A stretch of DNA of 64,000 bases, from positions 32,315 to 96,314 of the forward strand of contig NZ_JAPFBW010000026.1 of assembly GCF_026153205.1 (NCBI RefSeq). Reading direction: 5' to 3'. The stretch is from Aquabacterium sp. A7-Y (GTDB lineage Bacteria > Pseudomonadota > Gammaproteobacteria > Burkholderiales > Burkholderiaceae_C). Of this stretch, positions 1 to 20,218 are shown piece by piece. A program made the translations under genes and the position numbers. Position 1 is the first letter of the stretch. The number at the start of each line of letters is the position of its first letter. The notes under the pieces were generated by a model, which saw nothing but the letters and a program-made list of their open reading frames with translations, was not told where the DNA came from and ran no database searches.

Positions 1-1
1 C

Positions 2-259
2 GGGCACTGCATGGGAGCGGCCGGGATCATGGAGGCCATCTGCACCGTGCTGACCCTGCAGAAGCAGATCGTCACGCCGACCGCCTTCACGCAGGGCAAC
101 GAGGAGGCCCTGGGCTTCGACCTGGTCTGGGGCCAGCCCCGGCCAGCGACGCTGGCGCACGGCATCTCCCAATCCTTCGGCTTCGGGGGCGCCTGCTCCT
201 GCGTGGTGATGAGCCGTTGGGACGCCTCGCAGCAGGCAGCAAGCGCAGGAGGACATTGA
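2..259 (+). CDS. beta-ketoacyl-ACP synthase (KS), C-terminal end; 5' partial
   Basis: The translation ends with the conserved KS C-terminus (GAAGIMEAI...SFGFGGACSCVV). The reading frame is open to the window start. Confidence 0.7.
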   Translation, partial: GHCMGAAGIMEAICTVLTLQKQIVTPTAFTQGNEEALGFDLVWGQPRPATLAHGISQSFGFGGACSCVVMSRWDASQQAASAGGH

Positions 260-260
260 G

Positions 261-1457
261 ATGGAACGCGTGGTGATCACCGGGCTCGGCGTCGTCGGCC
301 CTCATGGGGTCGGCCTGGCCCCCCTGCTCGATGCCGAGCGGGTGCAGGGCACCAGCTTCAGCGCCTGGCCGGCCAATGTGGCCCGGCCGCATGACGAGGC
401 CCTCGTGGCCCAGGTGTCGGACCTGCAGGCGCGGCGCTACTTCACCGAGCGCCAGATGCGCCTGGCGGACCGCGCCATGCTGCTGGCCTCCTCGGCCGCC
501 GGCCTGGCCATCGAGGACGCCGGCCTGCACGGGCAGGAGGCCCTGCTGCGCGAGGCCTGCACCTTCCTGGGCACGGCGCGCGCCGAGCTGCCCTCCTGCT
601 ACCAGTTCCTGCGCCCGCAGCTCAACGAGCCGCGCGAGCAGCTCAACGCGGCCGACTTCCCCAGGATCGCGCGCAACATCGCCTGCGGCCAGGTGGCCAT
701 CCGCTTCGGCCTGCAGGGTCCCAGCACGGTGCTGGCCTCCGGGCCGCTGTCCTCGCTGGAGGCGGCCACCCGGGCCGCGCGCTACATCCGCACCGGCCGT
801 GCCACGCATGCCCTGGTGGGCGGCTTCGAGGCCCTGTCACGCTTCGCGCTGTACCACTTCAGCCAGCACCAGCGCGCCCACCTGCAGGCGCGGCATCCCG
901 CCTTCTTCGGCACGGACCCGGGCCTGCTGGTGCCCTCCGAGGGTGCCTGCATGCTGATGCTGGAGTCGCTCAGCTCGGCGCGGGCCCGTGGCGCGCGCAT
1001 CCATGCCGAGATCGAGGGCTGGTGCGCCGGCCGGGTCGGTGATGACGAGAACGCGGCCGAGGTCCTGGCCGAGCGCTGGCAGGCCCTGTCGGCCGGGCAG
1101 GAGCCGCGGGTGCTCGCGCTGTCCTCCGGCGGCGCGACCCGCGCGCATGAGCGGGCCGAGAGCGCAGCGCTGCCGGCCTGGTGCCAGCGCCATCCGCAGG
1201 CCGCCGTGATGGCGCCGCGGGCGCTGGTGGGCGAGGGCGATGCCTGGGCCTCGGCCCTGCAGCTGGCCCTGGCCGCGAACCTGCTGGGCCAGCGCGAGTC
1301 GCTGCCCCTGCATTCGCTGGCCCCCTCGGCCGACGCCTCGGTGCAGCGTGCCGCGAGCGCCCGGCCCCTGCACGGCGACCTGGCTGTGGTCAGCGCGATG
1401 AACGAAACCCTGCACTACAGCATGCTGTCCCTGCGGCGCCCCCCCTCGGAGGCCTGA
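261..1457 (+). CDS. KS-like protein lacking the active-site Cys (chain-length-factor-like partner)
   Basis: KS fold (VVITGLGVV...). The catalytic-Cys position reads GPLSSLEA instead of ACSSSL, and the HGTGT motif is absent. It starts 2 nt after the upstream KS gene. Confidence 0.7.
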
Positions 1458-1461
1458 AGCC

Positions 1462-2247
1462 ATGACGAATTCAGCATCCACTCCCGCCGCCCCGGCGGAG
1501 CGCGCGGTCCTGGTGACCGGCGGCAGCCGCGGCATCGGCCGGGCGGCCTGCGTGGCGCTCGCCGACCTGGGGCAGGTCATCTACGTCAACTATGCGCGCG
1601 ACCGTGCCGCGGCCGACGCCACCTGCGCGCTGGTGGAGCAGGCGGGCGGACGCGCCCGTCCGCTGCAGGGCGCGGTCGAGGACCCGGCCGCCGTGCAGGC
1701 CATGTTCGAGCAGATCCGTGCCGACGGCCACTGGGTCCACACTCTGGTGAACAACGCCGGCATCGTGGCGGACAACATGGCCGCAATGATGACCCTGGAG
1801 CAGTGGCGCTCGGTGCTGTCCACCAACCTGGACGGCGCCTTCCACTGCACGCGGGCAGCGCTGTCGACCATGTCGGTGCGCAAAGCCGGCAGCATCGTCA
1901 ATGTGGCGTCGGTCAGCGGCCTGCGCGCCCAGCCAGGGCAGATCAACTACGCGGCCTCCAAGGCCGGCCTGATGGCCATGACCCGCGGCCTGGCCCGCGA
2001 GATGGGCCGCTACGGCGTGCGCGTCAACGCGGTGGCGCCGGGCTTCATCGAGACCGACATGCTGGAGAGCGTCAAGAGCAGCGAGCGCGGCCAGGCCATG
2101 CTCGACGAGGCCCTGAAACAGCAGGCCGCCCTGCGCCGCGCCGGCAAGCCCAAGGAGGTGGCCTCGGTCATCCGCTTCCTGTGCTCCCCCGCATCCAGCT
2201 ACGTCACCGGCCAGACGATCGTGGTCGATGGAGGTCTCAGTGTCTGA
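1462..2247 (+). CDS. fabG: 3-oxoacyl-ACP reductase (SDR family, FabG-like)
   Basis: [10 protein letters not shown] glycine-rich motif and NNAG; catalytic YAASKAG. About 260 aa. Confidence 0.85.
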
Positions 2248-4318
2248 TCTGCGCGATTTGCCCCTCGATATGCGGCCCCTGCTGCACCGGCTCTTCCAGC
2301 CCATCCGCATCAACCGCCTGGAGCTGCGCAACCGCAGCATGATGAGCTCCATCCACCTCAACCTGGAGGAGTTTCCGGACCAGTTCGAGCGCATGGCGCA
2401 TTTCTACCGGCTGCGCGCCCGCCATGGCGCCGGCCTGATCGTGACCTCGGGTTGCGCGCCCGACGTGGCCGGCGCCTTCGCCAAGGACGGCTTCTCGCTG
2501 AAGTCCGATGCCGAGCTGCCGGCGCACCGCCTGCTGACCGAGGCCGTGCATGCCGAGGGCGGCCACATCGCGCTGCAGATCATGCACTTCGGCCGCGAGG
2601 CCGTGCACGGGCACCTGGTCTCGGCCTCGCCGCTGAAGCTGGCCTCCAGCATCTTCTCGCCGCGCCAGATGGAGGAGGAGGAAATCCTGACCCTGATCGG
2701 CGCCTATGCCGACTGCGCACAGCGCGCCATCGAGGCGGGCTACGACGCCATCGAGCTGATCTACTCGCAGGGCTTCCTGATCCACCAGTTCCTGGCGCGC
2801 GGCACCAACCAGCGCGAGGACCGCTGGGGCGGCTCTCTGGAGAACCGCATGCGCCTGGCGATCGAGGTGGCCAAGGCCGTGCGGGAGCGGGTGGGGCCGG
2901 ACTATCCGGTGATCTTCCGCATCCCCTGCATGGACCTGTTCGAGGGCGGCCTGGACACCGAGGAGGCCTTGGCCCTGATCGAGGCCCTGCTGCCCTACGG
3001 CATCGACCTGCTCAGCGTCAGCATCGGCTGGCACGACTCCTACGTGCCCACGATCGCGATGACCGCGCCGCGGGCCGCCTTCGCCACCGCCACGCGTCTG
3101 GTGCGCCAGCGCTTCCCGGCGCTGAAGCTGTGCGCCAGCAACCGCATCAACGACCCGCGCGTGGCCGAGTCCCTGCTGCTGGACGGCAGCGCCGACATGG
3201 TGGCCATGGCACGCCCCTTCCTGGCGGATGCGGCCTTCATGGACAAGGCCCTGCGCAACGACTTCGACGGCATCAACCCCTGCATCGCCTGCAACCAGAA
3301 CTGCCTGGACTACGTCTTCGCGGGCCAGCCGGTGGGCTGCAGCACCAATCCGCAGTCGGTGCGTCCGGAGGAGGGCCACTACGCCCCCCTGGCGCAGGCG
3401 GTGGACGTGGCCGTGGTGGGCGGCGGCATCGGGGGCATGGCGGCCGCGCTGTTCCTGCGCCGCCGCGGGGCGCGCGTGACCCTGTTCGAGTCCTCGCAGG
3501 CCCTGGGCGGCCAGCTGCTGATGGCGGGCGAGATCCCGGACAAGCGCGAGTTCGCCGGCACCGTGCGCTACTACGGCCAGGCACTGCGGCGCGAGGGCGT
3601 GGAGGTGCTGCTGGGACGCGCCTTCCAGCCCGCCGACGCCCAGCGCTTCGGCCACGTGGTGGTGGCCACCGGCTGCGCGCCGCGCCTGCCCCAGGACCTG
3701 CCGGGCACCGACCTGCCTCATGTGCGCCAGTACAGCGATGTGCTGGCCCAGCAGCTGCCGGTGCTGCCGCCGGTGGTCATCATCGGCGGCGGCGGCGTGG
3801 CCTGCGACATGGCCAAGTACGTCAAGAAGCGCCACGACGAGCGCGAGCACGAGGCCTGGCAGTACCTGAGCAGCCGGGCCGAGCCCGGGAGCCTGCAGGC
3901 CTTCGCCGCCCCCGAGGCGTCCAGTGCCGCGCCGGTGACCCTGGTGCAGCGCAGCAGCCGCAAGTTCGCCATGCGCCTGGGCCGCACCACGCGCTGGATC
4001 CAGATCAAGGACCTGCAGCGTCTGGGCGTCGTGATGCGCAACCGGCTGGAGATCCAGGAGATCACCGCCGAGGGCGTGCGCATCCTGGACAAGAAGACCC
4101 AAGCCGTCGAGCTGCTGCCGGCCCGCACCGTGATCCTGGCCGCCGGCCACCAGCCGCGCAGCGAGCTGGTGCAGGCCCTGGTCGAGCGCGAGGTGCCGCA
4201 CAGCGTGATCGGCTCGACGGCGCTGGAGGCCGACGAGCGGGCAGTGACCAACATCAGCTCGGTCATCGCCTCCGCCTACGAGTTCGCGATGGCCTTCGGG
4301 AACGCCGCGCATGGATGA
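2228..4318 (+). CDS. 2,4-dienoyl-CoA reductase-like NADH:flavin oxidoreductase (OYE TIM barrel, 4Fe-4S motif, FAD/NAD(P)-binding domain)
   Basis: OYE-like N-terminus, [10 protein letters not shown] Fe-S motif and [14 protein letters not shown] dinucleotide fold. This is the FadH architecture. The start is uncertain (ATG 2228 overlapping fabG, or ATG 2273). Confidence 0.75.
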
Positions 4319-5231
4319 GACCCTGCCGCAGGGCCTGTGGCGCCTGCCATGGCCCCGCCTGCGCCGCGCGCTGACCGTGGCCGCCCTGCACCTGCACCAG
4401 TTCCTGTGGCTGGGGGTCTTCCTCGTCCCCTTCCAGCTGGGGCTGCTGCTGGCAGCCCTGGTGCTGGGCATGGTGCTGGTGATCGGCGTGGAGATGGGCC
4501 ACCACCGCTACTTCTCGCACCGCAGCTTCCGCGTCGGGCGCGGCTTCCAGTGCGTGATCGCGCTGTGGGCCTCGGCCTCCTTCGAGCGCGGCATCCTGTG
4601 GTGGGCCAGCATGCACCGCCTGCACCACCGCCATTCGGACACGCCCCTGGACCCGCACACGCCCCTGCGCCGCGCGGGCGGCGGCTTCCTGCATGCCTAC
4701 CTGCGCTGGGCTGTGCACCCGCGCAATGCCGAGCCGGACTACCGCCTCGTCAAGGACCTGCTGGCCTATCCCGAGCTGCGCTTCATCGGCCAGTTCCCCT
4801 ATCTGGTCAGCGCCGCCTATGCGGGTCTGGCCTGGGGCCTGGGCGCCGCGGGCTGGGTGGGCAGCTCGGGCCTGCAGACCTGGGTTTGGCTCTATGCCAT
4901 GCCGGTCACGCTGTGCCAGCAGATCATCTCCGCCCAGGCCACGCTGGCCCACGGCGTGCCGCGGCTGCCGGGGTCCTACCAGCCCCTGCCCTGCAAGGAC
5001 GCCTCGCTCAACCACCGCTGGCTGGGCCTGATCTCCACCGGCGGCGGCTTCCATAACAACCACCACCACTTTCCCAGCTCGGCACGGCTGGGTCTGCGGC
5101 CCGGCGAGTGGGACATCAGCTACGGCGCCATCCTGCTGTTCAAGCGCCTGGGCCTGGTGCACTCGATCAACGTGCCACAACGGGCGCTCGACTACGGCCG
5201 CACCGGCCGCATCGGCACCGACCGATCTTGA
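4311..5231 (+). CDS. membrane fatty-acid desaturase (histidine-box di-iron family)
   Basis: His boxes HRYFSH, HRLHHRHSD and HNNHHHFP, plus TM helices. ATGGATGA start/stop overlap with the upstream gene. Confidence 0.8.
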   Translation: MDETLPQGLWRLPWPRLRRALTVAALHLHQFLWLGVFLVPFQLGLLLAALVLGMVLVIGVEMGHHRYFSHRSFRVGRGFQCVIALWASASFERGILWWASMHRLHHRHSDTPLDPHTPLRRAGGGFLHAYLRWAVHPRNAEPDYRLVKDLLAYPELRFIGQFPYLVSAAYAGLAWGLGAAGWVGSSGLQTWVWLYAMPVTLCQQIISAQATLAHGVPRLPGSYQPLPCKDASLNHRWLGLISTGGGFHNNHHHFPSSARLGLRPGEWDISYGAILLFKRLGLVHSINVPQRALDYGRTGRIGTDRS

Positions 5232-5242
5232 GGAGCAGACAG

Positions 5243-6091
5243 ATGTACGAAGAAGGCCGCGCCTACCCGGTTCGCAAGCTGTCCCTGGATCTGCATGCGC
5301 CCGCCCGGCGCCTGTGGTTCGGCGGCGATGCGTTCCGGACCCACTGGTTCAACTCCCTCTCCCAGGGCCTGCCGCTGGCGGAACGTTATGCCTCGGACTG
5401 TGTCAAGGCAGCCATGGCCCATGTCGACGATCCCGAGCTGCTGGAGCGCAGCCGCGACTTCGTCGGCCAGGAGGCCACGCACAGCTTCCTGCACCGCCAG
5501 TGCAACGAGCAGCTGGAGGCCATGGGCCTGCACTACTGGCTCGACGGCTACACGGCCTGGCGCATGAGCAAGGCCCACTGGCTCAGCTGGCGCAGCGGCC
5601 TGGCCCTGACGGTGGCCTGGGAGCACTTCACCACCATCCTGTGCGAGCACACCCTGGCGCATTCCGGCATCGAGTCCGAGGCCGACGAGCCCTACCGGTC
5701 CCTGTGGATGTGGCACTGCGCCGAAGAACTGGAGCATTCGGCCCTCTCGCACGACCTCTACCTCGCCTGCCGAGGGTCCTATCTGCGCATGCTGCTGATC
5801 TACCTGTATGGATCCATGCTCTTCGTGACGGACTTCCTCACCCAGGCCTTCTTCAACATCTACCAGGACGGGCAGCTGTTCAAGCTGGCGACCTGGCGTG
5901 ACGTCGCGCGCTACTTCCTGGGCCGCAAGGGCCTGTTCTGGTATGCGCTGCCGCGCTGGCTGGGATTCCTGCGCCCGGGCTTCCGGACGCCGCGCGGCCA
6001 GCATGCCGCCCTGATCGATGCGGCGCTGGGCGCGCTCAAGGAGCGCCTGCGCATCATCCCCAAGGCCCATGCACAGCGCAGCGCCGCTTGA
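5243..6091 (+). CDS. PF10118-type predicted metal-dependent hydrolase
   Basis: Matches my recollection of the family pattern (FRTHWFNSLS...GQEATHS...WHCAEELEHS). GAGGAG RBS 6 nt upstream of ATG 5243. Confidence 0.65.
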   Translation: MYEEGRAYPVRKLSLDLHAPARRLWFGGDAFRTHWFNSLSQGLPLAERYASDCVKAAMAHVDDPELLERSRDFVGQEATHSFLHRQCNEQLEAMGLHYWLDGYTAWRMSKAHWLSWRSGLALTVAWEHFTTILCEHTLAHSGIESEADEPYRSLWMWHCAEELEHSALSHDLYLACRGSYLRMLLIYLYGSMLFVTDFLTQAFFNIYQDGQLFKLATWRDVARYFLGRKGLFWYALPRWLGFLRPGFRTPRGQHAALIDAALGALKERLRIIPKAHAQRSAA

Positions 6092-6695
6092 GCCGGGCTG
6101 CCTGGCCGTGCATGTGCTGCCGCGCGGGGCCGAGCCCCGGCGCCGGCCAGCCGGCAGCGGGCGCGCCGACCCGCGGGTGAGGGCGCTGCTCGCGGCCTAT
6201 GGCGGCCCGCACCACAACCTCTCGCACAGCGGCGGCTGGCTCTACCTGGCGGTCTCCGGCAGTCCGGTGGGCGTGGACCTGGAAGGCTTTGCCCGCCGTC
6301 GGCATGGCGAGGCCTTCCGCCGCTTCCTGCTGGAGCGGGAGGACCCGCGGGCGGAGCGCGCGCCGGTCGCGCCGGGCTCCCTGGACGAGCAGGCGCTGGC
6401 GGTGCGAGTGTGGTCCCGGCTGGAGGCCCTGACCAAGTGCGAGGGCCAGGGCCTCGACGGCGCGCTGGACCACCTGCGCGTGCCCGCCGGGCCGCTGCCA
6501 GAGCCCTGGTGCGTCGACACCGCACAGGGCCCGCGCTGGCTGCTGGACCTGCCCAGCCCTGCGGGCATGGTGGCCAGCCTGGCCAGCCCGGTCCGCCCCC
6601 GGCATGTCCGCCTGCATGGCCCCGACGACGCGGCGGGCGACACGCCGGGACTGGCCCCCTTTCCTGCCAATGGCATTGATGACTTTCAACAGTGA
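6069..6695 (+). CDS. 4'-phosphopantetheinyl transferase (Sfp/EntD type)
   Basis: LSHSGGW...GVDLE and W..LEALTKCEGQGL motifs. The start overlaps the upstream gene by 23 nt. Confidence 0.7.
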   Translation: MHSAAPLEPGCLAVHVLPRGAEPRRRPAGSGRADPRVRALLAAYGGPHHNLSHSGGWLYLAVSGSPVGVDLEGFARRRHGEAFRRFLLEREDPRAERAPVAPGSLDEQALAVRVWSRLEALTKCEGQGLDGALDHLRVPAGPLPEPWCVDTAQGPRWLLDLPSPAGMVASLASPVRPRHVRLHGPDDAAGDTPGLAPFPANGIDDFQQ

Positions 6696-6700
6696 AAACG

Positions 6701-7867
6701 ATGCAAGCTGAGCGTGATTCCGCAGCCGGCCACTGGCCGCCTCCCGCCCTGCTATGGATGAGCGGGCTGACTGTACCCATGACCGTGGTGGCGTCCTTCC
6801 TCTGGGCGGCCCATGCGCGCCAGCCCGGCTGGGTCTGGCTGGTGCCGGCGCTGATCTACATCGTCATCCCGCTGGGCGACTGGCTGGTGGGCGTGAACCG
6901 GCGCAATCCGACGGCGGCGCAGAAGCAGTCGCGGAGCGCCGAGCGCTGGAGCCGCTGGGCGGTCGAGCTCTTCGTGCCCCTGCAGCTGGCCAGCGTGCTG
7001 GCCGGGGCCTGGCTGGTCTCCGTGCTGGAGCTGCCGCTCTGGGCGCTGCTGGGCGCCGGCCTGGCCGTGGGCAGCGTCAATGGCGTGGGCTTCATCGCCT
7101 CGCACGAGCTGCTGCATCGCCGCTCGCGCTGGGCGCAGTGGGGCGCGCGCTGGGCGCTGGCACCCACCTTGTACGGCCACTTCATGGCCGAGCATGTGCG
7201 CGGCCACCACAAGGCCGTGTGCACCCCGCCCGATCCCACCAGCTCGCGCATGGGCGAGAACTATTGGCGTTATCTCGTGCGCGCCCTGGTCACGGGCTTC
7301 CAGTCGGCCTGGCACATCGAGGCGCAGCGCCTGGGCAAGAAGGGCAAGCCGGTGTGGTCGCTGGAGAACGAGAACTTCCTGGCCTGGTCCGCCTCGCTGC
7401 TGCTGTTCGGAGGCCTGCTCCTGGCCTTCGGCTGGAGCATCCTGCCCTTCCTGCTGCTGCAGGCCGCCTATGGCGTCGTGCTGCTGGAGGTCACCAACTA
7501 CATCGAGCACTACGGCATGCTGCGCAAGAAGCTGCCCAACGGCGAGTACGAGCGCTTCACCCACGCCCATGCCTGGGACAGCAACCACCTGGTCTGCTCG
7601 CTCTTCATCTACCAGCTGCAGCGCCATGCGGACCACCATGTGAATCCCAACCGGCCCTACCACCTGCTGCAGTCCGAGGCCCAGACCCCGCAGCTGCCGG
7701 CCAGCTACGTCACCCTGATGCTGGTGGCCTATGTGCCGCCGCTGTGGTTCCGCCTGATGAACCCCATGGTCATCCGTCACCATGGCGGCGACCTCAGCCT
7801 CGCCAATGTGGACCCGCGCAAGCGCGAGCAGATGATGGCCCTGGCGGCCCGCTGGGAGCAGGCATGA
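6701..7867 (+). CDS. AlkB-like integral-membrane di-iron hydroxylase/desaturase
   Basis: HELLHR, EHVRGHH, NYIEHYG and LQRHADHH motifs. The ORF track starts at GTG 6692; ATG 6701 is more likely. Confidence 0.75.
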   Translation: MQAERDSAAGHWPPPALLWMSGLTVPMTVVASFLWAAHARQPGWVWLVPALIYIVIPLGDWLVGVNRRNPTAAQKQSRSAERWSRWAVELFVPLQLASVLAGAWLVSVLELPLWALLGAGLAVGSVNGVGFIASHELLHRRSRWAQWGARWALAPTLYGHFMAEHVRGHHKAVCTPPDPTSSRMGENYWRYLVRALVTGFQSAWHIEAQRLGKKGKPVWSLENENFLAWSASLLLFGGLLLAFGWSILPFLLLQAAYGVVLLEVTNYIEHYGMLRKKLPNGEYERFTHAHAWDSNHLVCSLFIYQLQRHADHHVNPNRPYHLLQSEAQTPQLPASYVTLMLVAYVPPLWFRLMNPMVIRHHGGDLSLANVDPRKREQMMALAARWEQA

Positions 7868-7870
7868 GAC

Positions 7871-8114
7871 CCGCCAGGCCGCCCCGAAGGCGCTCGCACC
7901 GCAGTGCGCAGCACGGAGGTTACCCAATGAGCCCCGCCCGGCCGCCCCGAAGGGGCTCGCACCGCAGTGCGCAGCACGGAGGTTACCCAATGAGCCCCGC
8001 CCGGCCGCCCCGAAGGGGCTCGCACCGCAGTGCGCAGCACGGAGGTTACCCAATGAGCCCCGCCCGGCCGCCCGAAGGGGCTCGCATCGCAGTGCGAAGC
8101 ACGGAGGTTACCCA
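7871..8114. repeat. tandem repeat, 4 copies of a 62-63-bp unit, each containing GGAGG plus ATGAGC (the ribosome-binding site and start codon of the downstream gene)
   Basis: Direct reading: ATG at 7927, 7990, 8053 and 8115 with identical preceding ...gcaccgcagtgcgcagcacggaggttacccaATGagc. The last copy is 62 nt. Confidence 0.9.
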
Positions 8115-10241
8115 ATGAGCCGCGCCACCCTCAGCCAGCAGTGCCGCGATGCCGGCGACGCCTACTTTATGGCCATGGAGGCCCTGGGGCATGACGTGGG
8201 CATCGAGCTGCGCTGCACCCTGCGCCAGCCCGTGGATCTGGACCTGGCGCTGGCGGCCTTCGAGGCGCTGCTGCGCCGCTATCCGGCGCTGCGCGTGCGG
8301 CGCCAGCCCGACGCGCACGGCGAGGGCTGGTCCTGGCAGGCCCTGGACGAGGCCGGCGCGCTGGCGCTGTGGGAGCGCCAGGCCCGTGCCCTGCGCGATG
8401 GCCAGGCCGGTCCGGCCCTGGGCGAGGGCCTACCCTTGCTGCTGGTGGACCTGCAGGAGCGCACCCTGGTGTTCCGGTCCGACCACACCTTTGCCAATGG
8501 CCGCGCGGCCTTTGCCTGGATCGCCCGCTTCCTCGAACTGCTGCATGGCGAGCAGCCGGCAGCCCTGGCCGGCGCGCCGGCGGCCCGCGGGCCCGTGGCC
8601 TCGCTGCCGCGGGCGCTGGCGCAGTTCATGCGCCAGTCCTGGGCCCGGCGCAGCCTGGGGGCCCATCGGCGCGACCCCGGTGCGCGGCTGCGTCCGGCCG
8701 GGCCGCAGGAGGCCGGCTGGGTGAGCCGCGAATGGACCGTGCCCCTGGCCTCGCTGGAGGCCCTGCTGCAGGGTCATGGCCTGGGCAAGGGCGCGGGCTG
8801 GACGCAGGCGCTCAGCGAGGCGCTGTCCCAGCACCTGCTGGCCAGCCTGCCCGAGCTGCCGGGGCTGCCGCTGCAATGGGCCATCGATCTGCACGAGGCC
8901 TGCGGAGAACCCGTGACAGCCCAGGGCAACTACACGGCCCTGGTCAGCGCCTATGTGGGACGCGAGCACAGCCAGGCACAGCTGGAGCGCCTGATGCAGG
9001 ACGTGCGCCAGGGCCTGGGGCCCGCGCAGGCGCGGCTGATCCAGTTGCAGGCCGCCCGGCGGCCGGCCATGATCCGCTGGTTCTGCCAGAACCTGTGGCC
9101 GCGGCCGGACGGCGCGCCCCGGGCCGCGGCCATGGATCCCGTGCTGACCCTGTCCAATGTGGGCCAGCTGCAGGAGCCGGCCTTCGAGCAGTGGGTGGAC
9201 AAGGCCTCGTTGTGGACCCGCACGCCCTCCGTCTACCTCTCCTGCACGACGGTGGGCGCCCAGGCGACGCTGGCCCTGAGCTTCCCGCGCCAGCTCTTTG
9301 ACGAGGCCCGCCTCTGTGCCAGCCTGGAGGCCTGGGTGGCCCTTGTGCAGCAGCGCAGGGGAGCTGACGAGCATCCGGCCACGGCCCTTGCCGAGGAGCA
9401 TCCGCTGATGCCCCGCCACTTCCAGCTGGACCTGCAGCGCGGCCTGCCGCTGCACTGGAACGGCAGCCCCTTCCGCAGCCAGTTCTTCAATTCCGTGTCC
9501 CTGCTGCTGCCGGCCGGGGAGCGCTGGATCATCGACACGGTACGGCGCACCATCGAGACCCTGCCCGAGCCCCTGCGCAGCGAATGGAGCAGCTACGGGC
9601 GCGACTTTATCGCCCAGGAGTCCATCCACCGGGCCCTGCACCGCAAGTACAACGAGCAGACCACGGCCCAGGGGCTGCAGGACTGGATAGGCGGCAAGGT
9701 GGAGGAGCGCATCACCTGGGGCGAGAAGGGCACGCCCATCAACCAGCTGGCCTCCTCGGTGACCTTCGAGTACATCACGACGCTGTTCTGCACCCGCGTG
9801 ATCCGCGACCCGTCCTGGCTGGACGGGGCCGACCCGCAGATGGCCCGCCTGTGGCTGTGGCATGTCTGCGAGGAGCTGGAGCACAAGCATTTCGTGCTGG
9901 ACCTGTTCCGGGCCGCGGGCGGCGGCGAGTTGCGCCGTATCGCCTGGTTCATCTGGTTCTCCAGCTCCTTCATGAAGGACCTGCACTACCAGCTCTACCT
10001 GTCCCTGCGCGGCAGCGGCCTGCTGTGGCGCTGGCGCACCTGGCGCGATGCCGCGGTCTTCTACTTCGGCCGGCGCGGCATGACCTGGCTCTTCATAGGC
10101 GGCAGCCTGCGATTCCTCAGTCCCTGGTTCCGCCATCCCGAGGGTCCCGAGGACAGGCTGGCGCGGCAGTGGTTCCAGAGCAATCCGACGGCCTTCGTGG
10201 AAGGGCGCGCGGTCCCCTCGGCCGCAGGCAGCCGGGCATGA
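8115..10241 (+). CDS. two-domain protein: condensation/WS-DGAT-like acyltransferase N-domain (HxxxNG variant) fused to a PF10118 metal-dependent hydrolase domain
   Basis: N-domain has SDHTFANG in place of HHxxxDG. The C-domain is clearly paralogous to the 5243-6091 product (FFNSVSLLLP...GQESIHRALH...WHVCEELEHKHF). Confidence 0.65.
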   Translation: MSRATLSQQCRDAGDAYFMAMEALGHDVGIELRCTLRQPVDLDLALAAFEALLRRYPALRVRRQPDAHGEGWSWQALDEAGALALWERQARALRDGQAGPALGEGLPLLLVDLQERTLVFRSDHTFANGRAAFAWIARFLELLHGEQPAALAGAPAARGPVASLPRALAQFMRQSWARRSLGAHRRDPGARLRPAGPQEAGWVSREWTVPLASLEALLQGHGLGKGAGWTQALSEALSQHLLASLPELPGLPLQWAIDLHEACGEPVTAQGNYTALVSAYVGREHSQAQLERLMQDVRQGLGPAQARLIQLQAARRPAMIRWFCQNLWPRPDGAPRAAAMDPVLTLSNVGQLQEPAFEQWVDKASLWTRTPSVYLSCTTVGAQATLALSFPRQLFDEARLCASLEAWVALVQQRRGADEHPATALAEEHPLMPRHFQLDLQRGLPLHWNGSPFRSQFFNSVSLLLPAGERWIIDTVRRTIETLPEPLRSEWSSYGRDFIAQESIHRALHRKYNEQTTAQGLQDWIGGKVEERITWGEKGTPINQLASSVTFEYITTLFCTRVIRDPSWLDGADPQMARLWLWHVCEELEHKHFVLDLFRAAGGGELRRIAWFIWFSSSFMKDLHYQLYLSLRGSGLLWRWRTWRDAAVFYFGRRGMTWLFIGGSLRFLSPWFRHPEGPEDRLARQWFQSNPTAFVEGRAVPSAAGSRA

Positions 10242-11563
10242 GCGAGGCCGCGCACTGGCAGGCGCCGCCGCACGCCCCGCAGGCCATGGGCTGGCGGGAC
10301 GTGACCTGGCTGCGCATGGACGCGCCCTGCAACCGCATGGTCATCCACTGGGTGGCCTTCCTGGAGCAGTCCCCCAGCCTGGCCCAGTTGCACGAGCTGG
10401 TGGGCCGGCGCCTGCTGGCCTATCCCCGCTTCGCGCAGCGGGTCCGGCGCGGCCTGCTGGGCTACCGCTGGGAGCCCGTGGCGAGCCTGGATCCCGCCTA
10501 CCACCTGCAGGAGCGCGTGCTGCCGCAGGCCGTGGATGCCGCGGCGGTGGAGGCCAGCCTCGCCGACTGGGTGCCGGAGGCGTTGGACCCGCAGCGGCCA
10601 CTGTGGCAGTGGCGGCTGCTCCGATCCAGTACGGACGGGACGGCGGCACTGATCGTCCGACACCACCACTGCATGACGGACGGCGACGGCCTGGTGCATA
10701 TGCTGCGCCACCTCAGTGACGGCGCCCGGCAGGCCGTGGGCCACCCGCGCCTGGAGGACCCCGTCCGCGGTCGCTGCCGCCATGTACCGCCGCCATCGGC
10801 CCTGGGTTCGGCCCTGTCGCGCTGGCTGGGCACGGCCTGGCAGGTGCTGCGCCTGAGTCTGCTGCGACGGGACTCCAGGATGCACTACAGAGGTCGACCC
10901 GGGCGACAGAAGTGCCTGATGAGCAGCCCTTCGTTGCCTTTGGACCAGTTCAGGCAGGTGGCCCGTCGTCACGGCGTTACCATCAACGACGTTTGGCTGG
11001 GCGTGGTGGCCGGCGCGCTGCGTCGGCACGCGCAAACGCTTGGCTGGAGTGTCGACGACACGCAGCTGCGCGCTGCCGTCACCTACAACCTGAGGCAGCG
11101 CGAAGATGCCGCCATGATGGGCAACCACTTCACGCTGACGGCCCTCGCCCTGCCGACACACTTGGCAGAGGCCGGGCAGCGGCTGAGAGCGGTGAGTCAG
11201 GGCATGCAGGCAATCAAGACGTCCTGTCACCCCTATGCCACTCTGGCGCTCATGACGTGCATGGGCTGTTTGCCGCGCTTTCTGCAGAGCCTGGCAATGG
11301 GACTCTTCACGAGCAAGGGCTCCCTGGTGTCGACGAACTTGCAGGGGCCAGCCGAGCACCGCTACCTAGCGGGCGCTCGGATCCGCGAGTTTCACTGTTG
11401 GGTTCCTCAGACTGGGCACACGGCGCTGGGTCTGATGCTGAGCACCTATGCCGGTCAGGCAGTGATGAGCGTGTCCTGCGACGCGAAGCTGGTGCCTCAG
11501 CCAGGACTGCTGCTGTCGGCGCTCCAGGAAGAGCTACGGTTGCTGCTGGTCGCGGCGACATAA
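10238..11563 (+). CDS. wax ester synthase / diacylglycerol acyltransferase family (WS/DGAT)
   Basis: HHHCMTDGDG (HHxxxDG) motif. About 440 aa. ATGA overlap with the upstream gene. Confidence 0.75.
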   Translation: MSEAAHWQAPPHAPQAMGWRDVTWLRMDAPCNRMVIHWVAFLEQSPSLAQLHELVGRRLLAYPRFAQRVRRGLLGYRWEPVASLDPAYHLQERVLPQAVDAAAVEASLADWVPEALDPQRPLWQWRLLRSSTDGTAALIVRHHHCMTDGDGLVHMLRHLSDGARQAVGHPRLEDPVRGRCRHVPPPSALGSALSRWLGTAWQVLRLSLLRRDSRMHYRGRPGRQKCLMSSPSLPLDQFRQVARRHGVTINDVWLGVVAGALRRHAQTLGWSVDDTQLRAAVTYNLRQREDAAMMGNHFTLTALALPTHLAEAGQRLRAVSQGMQAIKTSCHPYATLALMTCMGCLPRFLQSLAMGLFTSKGSLVSTNLQGPAEHRYLAGARIREFHCWVPQTGHTALGLMLSTYAGQAVMSVSCDAKLVPQPGLLLSALQEELRLLLVAAT

Positions 11564-11755
11564 GTTGCGCAGCCTGGTATACGTCCTTGCGGAAAGCGTC
11601 CAAGCGGCCCACGTTGCCCGGCATCGCGTCGTCGTTGAAGCAGCCCTGGACCACGGGCCGCAGCCAGCGGCCAACCAAAGGGATCGGCCCGTGCATGCGA
11701 GACAGCAGCGCCTGTCGAATCGCCTCGAGGCTGGCGCGCCGTTGCGAGTCTGTCC

Positions 11756-12346
11756 TCAGCGCACGCGCTGCCGGCGGCGGGCCGCGAGGCCGACGCCCGC
11801 CAGGCCGGCCAGCATCAGCGCATAGGTCTCGGGCTCCGGCACGGCAGCCGTGACCTTGATCGACGAATAGTCGCCCAGTTCTGTCACACCCTGCAGGTGC
11901 AGCATCATGGTGCCGTCGAAGGACGCGGCGGTCACGCCCGAGCCGGTGATGGTCCACACCGCCTGGTCTGTCGACAGGAAGCGGTCGGAACCCGGCTTGT
12001 TGCTGGTCGGAAAGGCGATTTCCCAGTCGAAGTCATAGGACGCGTTGACATGCGCGCCATAGACCGGGGCTTTCTTCACCGCGTTGCCGCTGACGGCGCC
12101 GACGCTACCTTGCGGACCGTTGAATTCGATCCGGCTCAGAAAACTGGCGTTGCCCAGGCTGGCGAAGTCGCCCTGCAAGGTGAACCGAGCGCCGCCGGCG
12201 ACGTCTTCAACCGTCAGGGTCGCGAGCGGCTGGACCTGCTCGCCGCCCACCAGTTGGGTAAAGCTATAGGTGTAGCTGGCGGCCTGGGAAGTACCGGCCG
12301 CGGTGAGGGCCAAAGCCGAAACCGCAGCGTAAAGCATTGCCTTCAT
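11756..12346 (-). CDS. PEP-CTERM sorting-domain secreted protein
   Basis: N-terminal signal peptide. C-terminal VPEPETYALMLAGLAGVGLAARRRQ. GGAAGGA RBS. Confidence 0.75.
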   Translation of the reverse strand: MKAMLYAAVSALALTAAGTSQAASYTYSFTQLVGGEQVQPLATLTVEDVAGGARFTLQGDFASLGNASFLSRIEFNGPQGSVGAVSGNAVKKAPVYGAHVNASYDFDWEIAFPTSNKPGSDRFLSTDQAVWTITGSGVTAASFDGTMMLHLQGVTELGDYSSIKVTAAVPEPETYALMLAGLAGVGLAARRRQRVR

Positions 12347-12625
12347 CGGGGATCCTTCCTGAGGAAACATGGGAAATGGTCCCGACAATTATCGGGGCGA
12401 GCAACACGCCCTCATCGTAAGAATCCGTGGCGAACCGCAACTGTTGGCAGGAGCCGACAGCGTGGGGCAGGCCCGTACTCCCTCGATCTGCACTCCTAGG
12501 GATGGCTTCGCCTCAAGGCCCTCCGGCATGCTGCGGCCTTGCACGTGCAGCTTCGATGTTTCCCGAGCGCCGGCTTCGGCGCCGGCGTGGCTCCTTCATT
12601 TCGACACTTTCCTTTTCAAGAAGTC

Positions 12626-13801
12626 ATGATGAGAAATCATTACCAGGGAAAAACGATTCTGATCACCGGCGCGACCGGCTTTATCGGTTCGGTGCTGCTG
12701 CAGACCCTGCTGACGAAGCTGCCGGGGCTCAGGAAGGTGTACTGCCTCTACCGAAACGCTCCGAGTCTTCAGGACCCGCGCGTCACCTGGATCCGGGGCA
12801 ACACCTCGGAGCCTGCGTGGGGCCTCGGCGAAGACACGCTGAACCGCCTTCGTGAAGAGGTGCACTTCATCTTTCATCTTGCGGCCCACACGCGCTGGGA
12901 CCTCGGGCTGCGCGACCAGGTGCTTGCGAACACCCTCCCCAGCCTGTACGCGGCCGAGCTTGCCGCCAGCTGCAAGCAGCTGGAAAGCTGCGTGATCACG
13001 TCGAGCTATTGGGCCGCCTGCCACATCAAGGGCAGCTCGCAGATCGCCGAGACGGTGTTCCAGGACTATCGCGGCGAAGCGGAACTGGCCGAGATCCTGT
13101 CCAGCCCGTCCAAGGCCCGCCTCGCGGAATGGCCCAATGCCTACTCCTATGCGAAGAACCTCGCGGAGCGGCTGGTCCATCAGCGCTATCCGCAGCTGCC
13201 GGTCGTCATGGCGCGCGTCACGTCGGCCTGCGGAGCGTGGCAGTTCCCGTTCCGTGGCGCGTGCCGCTACGACAATGCCTTGCCGGCCTTCTTGCGGTCG
13301 ATCGCGCTGGGCGGGGTGCGCGCCTTCCCCGAAAGCATGCGCTTGGCGATCAATGACGCCATTCCGGTCGACCTGTGCGTCAATCTTCTACTGGCGAACG
13401 CCATCGAGCATGCCGGCGGCAGTTTCACGGTCATCCACTGCTCGTCCGCCAAGCAGAACCTGCCGCGCCTGGGTGCCATCGCGGAGATGGCCGGGCCGAT
13501 CGACTATCACCCGACTTATGACGACCTCTATGCCGCCTTGTCGGAACTGGACAACCCGCGGGTGGCCAAGCTCAACCGGCTGATCGTGGACACCTACCGG
13601 TTGGCGCTGGAGGAAAAGTACGTCTTTCTCGACAGCCATGCCAGGCGCCCCTTGCGCTGGATGAGCGCCGAGGACCAGGCGCTCTTCCCGATCGACGTGA
13701 ACGGCGTGGACTGGTCCGAGCTGATCGTCAGCATGATCGATCGCATGAAAGCCGCGACCCGGGAGGTCCCGACCGGCCCGCGGCAAGGTATCGCCGCCTG
13801 A
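12626..13801 (+). CDS. fatty acyl-CoA/ACP reductase-like NAD(P)-binding protein (male-sterility/FAR domain)
   Basis: ILITGATGFIGSVLL Rossmann motif and FAR-like layout. Confidence 0.7.
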   Translation: MMRNHYQGKTILITGATGFIGSVLLQTLLTKLPGLRKVYCLYRNAPSLQDPRVTWIRGNTSEPAWGLGEDTLNRLREEVHFIFHLAAHTRWDLGLRDQVLANTLPSLYAAELAASCKQLESCVITSSYWAACHIKGSSQIAETVFQDYRGEAELAEILSSPSKARLAEWPNAYSYAKNLAERLVHQRYPQLPVVMARVTSACGAWQFPFRGACRYDNALPAFLRSIALGGVRAFPESMRLAINDAIPVDLCVNLLLANAIEHAGGSFTVIHCSSAKQNLPRLGAIAEMAGPIDYHPTYDDLYAALSELDNPRVAKLNRLIVDTYRLALEEKYVFLDSHARRPLRWMSAEDQALFPIDVNGVDWSELIVSMIDRMKAATREVPTGPRQGIAA

Positions 13802-13846: not shown

Positions 13847-15127
13847 TCAACGGGCCGGCCGCCGCTGCTCGGCGAGCAGCGCCCGCTCCGTCTCCAGCGC
13901 CCGGGCCAGGGCGGCCTGTCCGCTGGACCGGGCAGCGGCGATCAGTGTCTGGTCGAGCAGGTCGCGCTGCGCATGGCTGCCGCCGAAGCGGTGCGCGCGG
14001 TGGCGAATCGGGCGCAGCAGCTCCACCGTGCGCGCGGGCTGTCCCGCCACGAACGCGAGGACGGCCTGCGTCGCCGGCGCACCGACCTCGCGAAGGAAAC
14101 CCGCATTGTCGTCGTCCCGCTGCAGCGCTTCGGCTTGCGTCCGCAGCAACGTGTTCACCGCGTCTTCGCGGCCAGCGCAGGCGAAGGCCATCGCTGCATG
14201 CAGGTCGTTGAAGGCGTAGTTGCCGCTCGCCGCTGCCGGCGCCCAGCGCTCGGCCAGCGATTGCCAGCGAGTGCCGACGTCCACACCGCGCAGCTGCAGC
14301 CGCCAAAGCAGTGCACAGCCGTCGAGCAGCTCCATCACCAGTGTCGGCTGGTGCCCGTCGATGGGGCCATCGAAGATCTCCAGCACCGCATCGTGGTCGC
14401 CCTGCTCCAGGTGGTACAGCGCGAGGTGCCACCAGTTGTGGACGGCGAGAAAGCTGTCTCGCTGCCAGGCCGGGTTGCCGCGCATCCACGCGATGCCTTC
14501 GTCGCGCCGGCCCTGCATCTCCATCACGTGCGCCACCGCATGCTGCGCCCAGGCGTCCGCCGCCTCGAGCGCTACCGCCTCGCGACCCAGGCGCTCGGCA
14601 CGCGGGTAGTCGCCGGTTTCCTCCAGGCCGAAGGCGTACATGCCGAGCACCGCGTGGTAGCCCGGCAAGCTCGGGCTCCACTCGGGGAAGGCCCGGGCGA
14701 TGCGGTCGCGCAGCATGCGCGAGTCGCCGGTGAAGAAGTCCAGCTGCTGGCCCACCTGCAGCGCGAGCGCGTCGCGCGGACAGTCGACGCTCAGGTCCTC
14801 CAGCGTGCGCGCGGCGCCGCGCCACTGCCCGTTACAAAGCAGCTCGATGGCGCGCAGGTGGTACGCCTCGCGCTCGTTGTGCGGCAAGGCCAGGGCCGTC
14901 GCACAGGCGTCGCGGGCTACGGGCAGCGCAGCGGCCTCGGTGCCCAGCAGGTGCAGCCAGGCACGCAGCACATGTCCCATGACCAGCTCGGGGGACGCCG
15001 CAAGGGCGGCATCGACCGTCGCGACAGGATCGCCGGAAAAGCAGCGCAGTTCGTGCTGCCCGCGTTCGAGCAGGTCCAGTGCCTTGGTGTTGCAGCCGGA
15101 CAGTTCATGGTCGGTGGCGTCTTTCAT
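13847..15127 (-). CDS. TTC38-like tetratricopeptide repeat protein
   Basis: TPR-like helical repeats over 426 aa. GGAGGG RBS. The 581-aa ORF in the track is an N-terminal over-extension. Confidence 0.6.
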   Translation of the reverse strand: MKDATDHELSGCNTKALDLLERGQHELRCFSGDPVATVDAALAASPELVMGHVLRAWLHLLGTEAAALPVARDACATALALPHNEREAYHLRAIELLCNGQWRGAARTLEDLSVDCPRDALALQVGQQLDFFTGDSRMLRDRIARAFPEWSPSLPGYHAVLGMYAFGLEETGDYPRAERLGREAVALEAADAWAQHAVAHVMEMQGRRDEGIAWMRGNPAWQRDSFLAVHNWWHLALYHLEQGDHDAVLEIFDGPIDGHQPTLVMELLDGCALLWRLQLRGVDVGTRWQSLAERWAPAAASGNYAFNDLHAAMAFACAGREDAVNTLLRTQAEALQRDDDNAGFLREVGAPATQAVLAFVAGQPARTVELLRPIRHRAHRFGGSHAQRDLLDQTLIAAARSSGQAALARALETERALLAEQRRPAR

Positions 15128-15238
15128 GTCTCTTGCCCTCCAAGGTTCAAGCGCGGGTCGCGCCCAGACAGTGACATGATGCGGAGGGCGCAGCGATGCA
15201 CTAAAGTCATCTCGGCAAGAAACCGGACATTTCCGCCA

Positions 15239-18529: not shown

Positions 18530-18539
18530 GTCGCTATCG

Positions 18540-18560
18540 AAAAAAAAAGGCCGTGCGGCC
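18540..18560 (-). promoter_or_regulatory. GC hairpin (GGCCGCACGGCC) followed by a T9 tract 10 nt upstream of the phosphatase-kinase ATG (terminator-like or slippage-prone homopolymer)
   Basis: Read directly. The A9/T9 run is conspicuous in a 67%-GC genome. Confidence 0.4.
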
Positions 18561-18653
18561 TCGCGGAGTGTCAGCATGCCGGGCGCCTTATCGCGCGTGT
18601 CCATTTACAGTAAATAGGATATTCGTCAGGAAGCCCCGGACAGAGTTTTGTTC

Positions 18654-18878: not shown

Positions 18879-19142
18879 ATGAGCAGCATCCCTCCCATCA
18901 GCGAAGCGAGCATGCAGGCGGTCGAGGACCGGTTTCCCGAGCTGGCGGCCATGGCCGGCCGAGCAGCGCATGAGCGCGCGTTGACCCAGACCGGTCGTGT
19001 GGTGATGAAGTCGGCCAACGGCATGCTGGTGGAAGCACGTGCGAACGGCGCGATCCGGGTCATCAAGCCGCTGCCTGCCACCACGCCGGTGGCGCGAGGG
19101 CTGGTCCTGACGCGCAAGAAGGCCGGTCACGGCGCCCGGTGA
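18879..19142 (+). CDS. small protein upstream of, and translationally coupled to, a zeta-toxin-like ATPase (putative antitoxin)
   Basis: 87 aa. Its stop overlaps the GTG start of the next gene (GTGA). Confidence 0.4.
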   Translation: MSSIPPISEASMQAVEDRFPELAAMAGRAAHERALTQTGRVVMKSANGMLVEARANGAIRVIKPLPATTPVARGLVLTRKKAGHGAR

Positions 19143-19918: not shown

Positions 19919-20218
19919 TCTCGCGCAAACCTGAGCTGTGGGTCGGGCCAGTTCCTCAAGCAGAAAGTCGATGAAGACGCGCACCCGGTGCGGCTTGCCC
20001 GCGCACGGGTCGCGCGCACGCCCGAGGACCCGGCATACCCCGCAGTCGCGGGGGGCGGGAACGCAGGCACACACCTAGATTGGAACGGTACGAGGTGCAG
20101 GGCTGCAAGAAGCCCGTACCACGCTCTTCTCCGCGTCGAATAGCGGCCGGCGAATGATAGCTCTGCACCTCAACAGGACGTCGCACTCGCCTCCGTGTCG
20201 ACCGAGAGAGGAACCGAC

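Follow-up and report, generated by a model that had tools for sequence, protein, structure and literature searches.

Several described systems share parts of their machinery with the locus considered here, a biosynthetic operon at the left end of a 64,000-nucleotide stretch of DNA from Aquabacterium sp. A7-Y (contig NZ_JAPFBW010000026.1, positions 32,315 to 96,314; the whole stretch is called the window below). The aryl polyene (APE) systems (ApeO/ApeC, ApeQ, ApeI) have in common with it a discrete acyl carrier protein (ACP), a ketosynthase (KS) with a dead KS-like partner, a FabG-like ketoreductase (KR), an ApeI-like hot-dog dehydratase and an operon in a Gram-negative host. However, the locus has in addition FadH-type and thioester reductases, the alkane monooxygenase AlkB, a desaturase, PF10118 proteins and acyltransferases of the PapA5 and wax ester synthase/diacylglycerol acyltransferase (WS/DGAT) types, and it has no aryl starter, anchoring/export or thioesterase genes. 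The rhizobial acpXL-fabZXL-fabF2XL-fabF1XL cluster has the same order of ACP, dehydratase, KS and KS and makes a specialised chain on a dedicated ACP. It ends with the lipid A acyltransferase LpxXL, and neither a thioester reductase nor FadH, AlkB, a desaturase or a PF10118 protein belongs to it.

Other likenesses concern single enzymes. In mycobacteria, PapA5 takes part in the synthesis of phthiocerol dimycocerosate (PDIM), where it joins carrier-bound acyl chains to a long-chain diol by ester bonds; the capping step proposed below would be in keeping with this. A domain of the locus keeps the catalytic His and has a condensation/PapA5-like fold in a low-confidence model, but differs in an Asp to Asn change in the motif, a fused di-iron domain, a Gram-negative host and the lack of a type I polyketide synthase (PKS). 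The alkane degraders Acinetobacter, Marinobacter and Alcanivorax have an AlkB with all of the same signature motifs and a WS/DGAT with HHxxxDG. In the locus, by contrast, both enzymes are encoded inside a carrier-protein operon without an alkS or AraC regulator; the WS/DGAT gene overlaps the fusion gene before it, and alkB overlaps its neighbours in relatives, whereas in the window a repeat interrupts the junction of alkB with the fusion gene. The ferritin-like di-iron oxygenases (acyl-ACP desaturase, aldehyde deformylating oxygenase (ADO), AurF/CmlI, CylC/NocO) share with the PF10118 proteins a four-helix bundle, a ligand set and a carrier-protein pathway. E. coli FadH shares full-length homology with a further enzyme, covering the FMN and FAD/NADPH domains as well as the 4Fe-4S Cys motif. 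However, the gene here lies in a biosynthetic operon, overlapping that of the KR, and the presumed substrate is an ACP- rather than a CoA-thioester.

Searches of the reachable literature gave no characterised cluster of this gene content. We consider it moderately likely that the locus is an orphan cluster resembling type II fatty acid synthases (FAS) and PKSs, in which a chain is built on a dedicated ACP, oxidised by di-iron enzymes and capped by ester-type bonds; our confidence in any exact product is much lower. All of the catalytic families are known, and the novelty is their combination in a type II FAS/PKS-like lipid cluster. As judged from sequence, the unusual elements appear to be an AlkB recruited into biosynthesis, a FadH-type enoyl reductase of a synthase, and PF10118 proteins as candidate di-iron oxygenases, of which one is joined to a very rare PapA5-like acyltransferase.

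Genes were called by combining third-position GC frame analysis, a list of open reading frames (ORFs), translations and Pfam/NCBIfam scans. Bases 2-11563 hold ten tightly packed, co-oriented plus-strand ORFs, one truncated by the left window edge. The GC content is 69-73% in the first 12 kb of the window against 61-69% in the remainder, and a third-position GC of 0.84-0.95 singles out one reading frame per segment. The features of this region are as follows.

2-256, plus strand: 3' end of the catalytic KS (Pfam Ketoacyl-synt_C; NCBIfam FabF-like C-terminus)
261-1457, plus strand: Cys-less KS-like partner, similar to a chain length factor (CLF) (Pfam ketoacyl-synt N-domain only)
1462-2247, plus strand: FabG-type 3-oxoacyl-ACP reductase, the KR (adh_short_C2, E 1.3e-61)
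2228-4318, plus strand: FadH-type FMN/4Fe-4S/FAD-NADPH 2,4-dienoyl-thioester reductase (Oxidored_FMN and Pyr_redox_2)
4311-5231, plus strand: membrane histidine-box desaturase of the stearoyl-CoA desaturase (SCD) type (acyl-CoA, delta-9-like; FA_desaturase, E 1.1e-17)
5243-6091, plus strand: PF10118a, a protein of ferritin-like di-iron oxygenase fold
6069-6695, plus strand: Sfp/AcpT-type 4'-phosphopantetheinyl transferase (PPTase) (Pfam ACPS, E 3.8e-6)
6692-7867, plus strand: AlkB alkane 1-monooxygenase, a membrane di-iron omega-hydroxylase (FA_desaturase family; match to PDB 8F6T)
7864-8126, no strand: 63-bp tandem repeat, 4.2 copies (Tandem Repeats Finder score 477, 96% matches)
8115-10241, plus strand: 708-aa fusion gene (PF10118 in the C-terminal 280 residues)
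8115-9410, plus strand: N-terminal domain of the fusion, PapA5/condensation-superfamily acyltransferase-like (DHTFANG in place of HHxxxDG)
9411-10241, plus strand: C-terminal domain of the fusion, PF10118b (PF10118, E 6.5e-48)
10238-11563, plus strand: WS/DGAT-family O-acyltransferase, the last operon gene in the window clade (WS_DGAT_cat and WS_DGAT_C)

An initial annotation, made from the letters and an ORF list, had proposed a single translationally coupled biosynthetic locus with a KS/CLF-type pair, KR, FadH-type reductase, PPTase, acyltransferases and two membrane di-iron enzymes. This has held up. The close or overlapping stop/start junctions (1457/1462, 4311/4318, 6069/6091, 6692/6695 and 10238/10241) are all found in the ORF list and translations, and the Pfam/NCBIfam scans agree with the identities given to the KS, FabG, FadH, desaturase, AlkB, PPTase and WS/DGAT. 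Some details need correcting. Eleven co-oriented genes had been counted rather than ten, the fusion having probably been taken as two genes, and the implied gene order was slightly off, since PF10118 comes after the desaturase and AlkB after the PPTase. Scanning DNA of 70% GC for promoters and terminators was uninformative.

How widely does this arrangement occur? The 708-aa fusion has just three close relatives among 5.8 billion proteins. This set of genes, in this order, is present in four contigs of the window clade (L001, L002, L003 and the JGI contig L018, the one locus added by a metagenome scan). An exact-sequence look-up of the KS-like protein of the window gave no record. Queries with the PF10118 protein and with the N-terminal part of the fusion led to more distant versions, and a scan of GTDB representatives gave one distant locus. 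Altogether, at least five diverged lineages share the core order (the window clade, Pseudoduganella rivuli, L009/L010, L011 and L016), and protein identity between them is 44-69%. Within the window clade, the ratio of nonsynonymous to synonymous substitution rates (dN/dS) lies between 0.09 and 0.25 in each of the eight genes tested, all of which are under purifying selection.

The relatives also extend the operon to the left of the window. Upstream genes in L001 and L018 encode a 105-aa ACP (LDSIEAF), a FabA/ApeI-like dehydratase of 161 aa and the complete KS of 419 aa, and in L001 these are preceded by a gene for a 380-aa NAD_binding_4 reductase. The ACP and dehydratase that had been predicted upstream are thus present in orthologous contigs (L001, L018, L008, L011 and L015). 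The cultured isolate P. rivuli FT92W (GCA_009674485.1, contigs WKJJ01000022 and WKJJ01000025; loci L004, L008, L014 and L015) has the order reductase, ACP, dehydratase, KS, KS-like, FabG, FadH and desaturase, followed by PF10118, PF10118, PPTase, a separate gene for a 418-aa acyltransferase-like protein, PF10118 and AlkB. L016 runs FabG, FadH, desaturase, PF10118, PPTase, AlkB, PF10118 and a separate 452-aa acyltransferase-like gene. L009/L010 and L011 share the core with three or four PF10118 genes, after which come IspH and a UbiA-family prenyltransferase and no acyltransferases. The composite order in the relatives is thioester reductase, ACP, ApeI-like dehydratase, KS, KS-like, FabG, FadH-like, desaturase, PF10118, PPTase, AlkB, fusion and WS/DGAT. 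In our reading, what the window holds is the latter two-thirds of a dedicated and self-contained operon for lipid biosynthesis, with some 13 genes in all. This cluster family is rare and found in few Burkholderiales. Its diagnostic PF10118a orthologue forms about ten clusters at 90% identity, which come from Burkholderiales-like sources (a Burkholderiaceae metagenome-assembled genome, Duganella/Pseudoduganella) or metagenome assemblies. A tblastn search of plasmids gave no copy of the cluster; one match to the KS-like protein, on a Rhizobium etli plasmid, was set aside because it looks like a NodF/NodE-type pair and not a related cluster, and a Cupriavidus match was unannotated.

The chain-building enzymes have the make-up of a type II PKS/FAS of the KS/CLF kind: a catalytic KS, a conserved Cys-less partner, ACP, PPTase, KR and dehydratase, with FabG and the PPTase read in the window and the ACP and dehydratase in L001, L008, L011, L015 and L018. 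The KS fragment of the window is the last 84 residues and is 88% identical to the end of the L001 KS. Full-length KSs of L001, L008 and L011 have the Cys-His-His catalytic triad (STACAS, HLTA, HGTAT). In the KS-like partner the Cys is replaced by Pro (ASGPLSS), the region of the first His is deleted and the second His is Gly, and when it is aligned with E. coli FabF and the KSs of the clusters, identical losses are seen in three lineages. Its orthologues are 52-89% identical. Could it be a FabF pseudogene? Its dN/dS of 0.19 and the retention of this pattern across the three lineages show that it is not; the protein is a conserved, non-catalytic subunit rather than a decayed FabF. Classical aromatic-PKS CLFs carry Gln at the active-site Cys position. 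Since the partner has Pro there and not Gln, decarboxylative priming is not expected. Both KS and partner are generically FabF-like and reach no curated NCBIfam cut-off, which, together with empty literature searches, agrees with the earlier claim that no known pathway is matched. Among the better structural matches are chains B/C of PDB 9S5H, heteromeric '3-oxoacyl-ACP synthases' (KS E 2.6e-66, partner E 3.5e-18), for which a literature search found no paper. FabG matches TIGR01830 (E 2.6e-75), below its cut-off. The PPTase has syntenic orthologues in L001, L003, L008 and L009, and the L008 and L009 proteins weakly match AcpT, AusB and HetI.

Such a KS pair with a KR and an ApeI-like dehydratase might instead make a variant aryl polyene, or a plain polyene pigment, attached to the outer membrane by an ester. 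The dehydratase does match the Pfam ApeI-like family, FabG resembles the flexirubin KR FlxB (E 6e-72), and LolA-like and FtsX-like genes lie downstream in Pseudoduganella. In addition, the nearest match to the KS-like partner in plasmid records is an E. coli KS-family gene (30% identity), which we take to be part of the E. coli aryl polyene locus. However, the accessory domains of APE systems are missing from the window and from complete orthologous operons: there is no aryl-activating ligase, second ACP, ApeR-type KS, thioesterase, lysophospholipid acyltransferase (LPLAT), glycosyltransferase or LolA/MMPL export gene, so that the mismatch with APE clusters noted in the initial annotation is borne out. 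The KS and its partner fall below every curated KS model, and the KS is nearer to FabF (E 5.6e-71) than to PDB chain 6SMO_B (E 5.9e-51), presumably ApeO. A dienoyl reductase of the FadH type, present in every version of the cluster, would moreover abolish conjugation. A polyene product thus seems unlikely. Thailandenes, the polyene aldehydes and acids of Burkholderia, were also considered as a product and rejected because they are made by a three-gene type I PKS. Polyyne clusters have a fatty acyl-AMP ligase, ACP, at least three desaturases, a thioesterase and rubredoxin. Compared with these (cay/ccn/col/pgn), the locus has no AMP-ligase, thioesterase or rubredoxin, a single SCD-type desaturase, and a KS pair instead.

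The FadH-like protein is the sole C=C reductase in every cluster version. It matches E. coli FadH over its full length (PDB 1PS9, E 3.9e-152) and has what defines a FadH 2,4-dienoyl-CoA reductase, namely an FMN domain of the old yellow enzyme type, the 4Fe-4S Cys cluster (C-x2-C-x3-C-x11-C in the translation) and an FAD/NADPH domain, while falling under every NCBIfam equivalog cut-off. It appears to stand in for the missing enoyl reductase of the FabI/FabK/FabV type. A gene for a FabV-type trans-2-enoyl reductase lies in the window about 13 kb from the cluster (24922-26118, minus strand). This is presumably the housekeeping FAS enoyl reductase, although, with no enzyme of the FabI/K/V type encoded in the cluster itself, it might in principle work there too. 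The other reductase, upstream in the relatives, matches the thioester reductase model TIGR01746 (E 8e-52 and 177 bits against a cut-off of 213 for the L011 protein) and MxaA (PDB 4U7W, E 1.5e-30). We take it to be a stand-alone thioester reductase, nearest to the MxaA release domain. MxaA carries out a four-electron reduction to the alcohol.

Both membrane di-iron enzymes proposed in the initial annotation are well supported. The desaturase aligns with SCD1 (PDB 4YMK, E 4.4e-13) and has the boxes HRYFSH, HRLHH and HNNHH. The second histidine-box enzyme aligns with Fontimonas AlkB (PDB 8F6T) over residues 43-389 with E 1.7e-114, and has all of the signature motifs (HELLH, EHVRGHH, NYIEHYG and LQRHADHH), so that by its motifs it classes as a canonical AlkB alkane 1-monooxygenase. 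A regular-expression scan for the rubredoxin motif (CxxCG ... CPxC) in six frames of the 64-kb window gave nothing, and there is none in the orthologous loci; the rubredoxin partner of AlkB may be encoded elsewhere. What if two unrelated units merely lie side by side, an APE-like type II FAS/PKS module and a module for alkane oxidation and wax-ester storage consisting of AlkB, PF10118 and WS/DGAT? The canonical nature of AlkB would fit this, as would the membership of WS/DGAT in a family of storage-lipid enzymes, the plasmid-borne PF10118 genes known from alkane degraders (Acinetobacter, Marinobacter, Dietzia and Mycobacterium), and the nearby genes for a fatty acyl reductase (FAR) and an AraC-type regulator. 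However, AlkB and PF10118b occur in all five lineages, set between the PPTase and the acyltransferases, and the stop and start codons around them overlap or nearly abut in several of these. An alkane module would also lack rubredoxin, rubredoxin reductase, alcohol dehydrogenase and aldehyde dehydrogenase, all of which are absent. The canonical Ralstonia alkB locus is without PF10118 or any other cluster gene, and WS/DGAT is missing from most lineages. We regard the two-unit explanation as improbable.

The PF10118 proteins deserve particular attention. Databases label them 'metal-dependent hydrolase' and the initial annotation had followed suit with two PF10118 hydrolase domains. We know of no activity for any member of the family, and literature searches on PF10118 and COG3687 returned nothing relevant. 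Their fold and ligand set are instead of the ferritin-like di-iron oxygenase (FDO) type: a four-helix bundle with invariant E/ExxH/E/ExxH ligands, as in the rest of that superfamily. The invariant motifs are QExxH and HxxEExxH, kept in PF10118b as QESIH and HVCEELEH. Identity to any solved structure is about 10%, and PDB sequence searches with PF10118 and the N-terminal domain of the fusion gave chance matches only. With this pair the di-iron enzymes in the window number four, not the two initially counted. Each cluster has two to four PF10118 paralogues. One orthologous group sits after the desaturase, directly in the window clade and behind a further PF10118 gene elsewhere. The orthologue of PF10118b adjoins alkB in four of the five lineages (it is 42-50% identical in L008, L009 and L011, and in L016 the gene after alkB is a PF10118 gene), whereas the window clade has the PapA5-like domain between the two. 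A general rule pairing PF10118 with membrane desaturases was considered and rejected, since stand-alone copies lie beside TetR genes or between gatA and gatB. Examples of other contexts are a Ralstonia solanacearum megaplasmid, where a PF10118 gene overlaps a fatty acid desaturase gene (L007, 6097-7720), a Dietzia plasmid, where PF10118 lies between a short-chain dehydrogenase/reductase and a PDR/VanB-type reductase and resembles an oxygenase-plus-reductase pair (L013, 893-4646), and Aquabacterium lacunae, with PF10118 inserted between gatA and gatB (L021, 3478-7396).

What might such enzymes do? One suggestion is a hydrocarbon pathway in which the reductase makes a fatty aldehyde, an ADO-like PF10118 protein converts this to alkane or alkene, AlkB re-hydroxylates it and the alcohol is esterified. 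This is doubtful. ADO is one of many ferritin-like matches and not the best, as CmlI, the R2 subunit of ribonucleotide reductase and AurF score above it. A reductase resembling the alcohol-forming MxaA would make a loop of deformylation and re-hydroxylation redundant, and the two to four PF10118 paralogues per cluster would be left unexplained. Another suggestion is that PF10118 proteins are halogenases like CylC/NocO, acting on the ACP-tethered chain to give a halogenated lipid. CylC homologues, which belong to the ferritin-like di-iron enzymes, chlorinate fatty acyl chains held on an ACP (PMC12101540), and their QExxH/HxxDExxH motifs resemble the QExxH/HxxEExxH of PF10118. However, the likeness is at the level of motif and fold class only, the second motif lies at residues 279-286 in NocO and 158-165 in PF10118, which indicates a different architecture, and CylC homologues are reported to be nearly confined to cyanobacteria (PMC8406957). 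We think halogenation very improbable. The preferred interpretation of the PF10118 proteins is that they are candidate oxygenases of the pathway.

The end of the cluster is its most variable part. In the fusion, the N-terminal domain keeps the catalytic His (DHTFANG) with Asn in place of Asp and has no Pfam match of its own. Its remote homologues match Pfam PapA_C and its structure model has a condensation/PapA5-like fold, at a pLDDT of 56. An hhalign comparison with the cluster WS/DGAT was not significant (probability 3.7%), though the His motifs were aligned. The initial label 'condensation-like' would fit as to superfamily, and the model would refine it to a PapA5-like acyltransferase of a very rare family (37 representatives among 1.84 billion proteins) fused to a second PF10118 domain. 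The WS/DGAT has PF03007 and PF06974, an intact HHCMTDG and a TIGR02946 match (E 1.1e-74, 252 bits against a cut-off of 310). It was found in L001, L002, L003 and L018 only and is absent from the other lineages. The wax-ester-like chemistry first suggested would thus apply to the window clade, with PapA5-like and WS/DGAT enzymes, but not for Pseudoduganella and L016, with a PapA5-like enzyme alone, or for L009 and L011, which end with UbiA and IspH. In these last two (L009 8160-10391, L011 13002-14842), the IspH (4-hydroxy-3-methylbut-2-enyl diphosphate (HMBPP) reductase) paralogue is over the TIGR00216 cut-off and the UbiA-family prenyltransferase is of the type that includes ether-forming digeranylgeranylglyceryl phosphate (DGGGP) synthases. 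L009 additionally has a thioredoxin, and L011 a CMAS/UbiE-like methyltransferase upstream. From family membership, these ends would imply a prenylated or ether-linked version of the product.

The 63-bp repeat sits exactly at the ATGA junction of the alkB stop and the fusion start, and fills the only sizeable gap in the operon (7868-8114). Every copy contains small GC hairpins and re-creates GGAGG-N8-ATGAGC, in which GGAGG is a ribosome-binding site; there are four copies of this motif with none expected by chance. The last copy is 62 bp, which puts the upstream ATGs out of frame. The repeat is missing from L001, L002 and L018, and in L001 and L018 the two genes simply overlap by ATGA. It may be an assembly artefact.

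Two further genes lie immediately to the right.

11756-12388, minus strand: PEP-CTERM gene
12626-13801, plus strand: NAD_binding_4 FAR

The FAR had been placed in the pathway, the minus-strand PEP-CTERM gene between it and WS/DGAT having been overlooked. The right flank differs among relatives, with an ABC-F ATPase in L001, an integrase, phospholipase C and IS110 transposase in L018, and PEP-CTERM and FAR in the window; the cluster therefore ends after WS/DGAT. The FAR lies behind a gene of opposite strand and has no counterpart next to the cluster in L001 and L018. It shares 25% identity with the thioester reductase conserved upstream and matches TIGR01746 weakly (E 1.7e-17 against 8e-52 for the L011 reductase). 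As a candidate for the cluster reductase it was rejected on synteny and orientation, and its region is probably a separate fatty-alcohol unit. The FAR itself is eukaryote-like, NAD_binding_4 being followed by a weak 'Sterile' C-terminus. After it comes a gene for an AraC-family regulator with a DJ-1/PfpI domain (about 15300-16306, plus strand), and a minus-strand ORF with weak TPR matches (13847-15592) overlaps the FAR/AraC region.

A pathway can be proposed from these parts. The PPTase would prime the cluster's own ACP, on which the KS, its inactive partner, the KR and the dehydratase would together lengthen the acyl chain. Neither a starter-loading enzyme nor a malonyl transferase is encoded in the cluster or window, so an acyl primer is probably extended with malonyl-ACP supplied by FAS, malonyl loading being taken from the primary FAS. 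The FadH-type enzyme would reduce conjugated 2,4-dienoyl-ACP intermediates, one cycle late. Because it is the sole C=C reductase, the chain should be largely saturated or partly unsaturated and no polyene pigment. The MxaA-like thioester reductase may then free the chain as an aldehyde or alcohol, and the neutral lipid would be modified in the membrane, with the SCD-type desaturase introducing a cis double bond and AlkB an omega-hydroxyl. PF10118 proteins might carry out additional oxidation steps that depend on O2, acting on the chain while it is bound to ACP or jointly with the membrane enzymes. WS/DGAT and UbiA with IspH both act on hydroxyl-type acceptors, which suggests that the core product carries hydroxyls that are later capped. 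In the window clade this would be done through O-acylation by the PapA5-like and WS/DGAT enzymes, giving a wax-ester or diol-diester lipid, and in other lineages by the PapA5-like enzyme alone or by the UbiA-type prenyltransferase and IspH. Two hydroxyls (C1 via the reductase, omega via AlkB) and two O-acyltransferases could yield a diol-diester wax reminiscent of PDIM.

Several points weigh against this scheme. Each chemical step is taken from family membership, whereas the direct observations are of gene content, catalytic motifs, folds, conserved order and purifying selection. The upstream genes are known from relatives and not from the window's own genome, and the cluster has no loading enzymes. 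No rubredoxin, ferredoxin or ferredoxin reductase is encoded in the cluster or window, so electrons for AlkB, the desaturase and the PF10118 proteins would have to come from donors with genes elsewhere. Between cluster lineages the identity of AlkB is 44-54%, and the catabolic-type Fontimonas enzyme aligns with it similarly well; being about as near to catabolic AlkBs as to other cluster AlkBs, it does not mark out a dedicated biosynthetic clade. PF10118 genes outside the cluster stand in unrelated contexts, which speaks against any general fixed partnership with membrane di-iron enzymes. Finally, the PapA5-like assignment draws on the low-pLDDT model, remote and transitive Pfam matches and the non-significant hhalign result.

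Beyond the cluster and its right flank, the window contains a few genes of separate interest. A second protein with a PEP-CTERM sorting signal is encoded at 20195-22357 (plus strand). A minus-strand gene at 43473-45056 joins a GTP cyclohydrolase FolE2 domain to FAD_binding_6 and NAD_binding_1 domains of the ferredoxin-reductase type, a combination that we do not recognise from elsewhere. One 604-aa ORF (16790-18604, minus strand) combines a PP2C phosphatase with a Ser/Thr protein kinase domain and adjoins a zeta-toxin-like gene (19139-19918). Compared with the rest of the window, strong positive AT skew occurs at 22001-24000 (0.24) and 58001-60000 (0.18). The latter stretch overlaps the type I restriction-modification gene hsdM (57596-60118), and a Schlafen/AlbA_2 gene is next (61406-63061).

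What would such a pathway mean? In its boldest form, which we offer tentatively and with less than even confidence, the cluster would represent a bacterial lipid pathway of a new class, with four to six di-iron enzymes oxidising a chain built on its own carrier protein. It would include the first biosynthetic canonical AlkB, the first functional context for PF10118 as a new di-iron oxygenase family misnamed hydrolase, and a new and extremely rare PapA5-like family. These Gram-negative Burkholderiales would then make either a diol-diester resembling PDIM or an oxygenated envelope lipid with an ether cap. The fusion of a PapA5-like domain to a di-iron domain suggests that hydroxylation is coupled to acylation, and might find use in making omega-functionalised lipids. 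The existence of a cultured carrier, P. rivuli FT92W, makes the hypothesis directly testable. If it is true, the cluster would open a new branch of bacterial lipid/polyketide chemistry, in which AlkB is a tailoring enzyme rather than one of alkane catabolism and a FadH-type dienoyl reductase does the enoyl reduction for a type II synthase. PF10118 would gain its first testable function, and the resulting re-annotation would touch many genomes.

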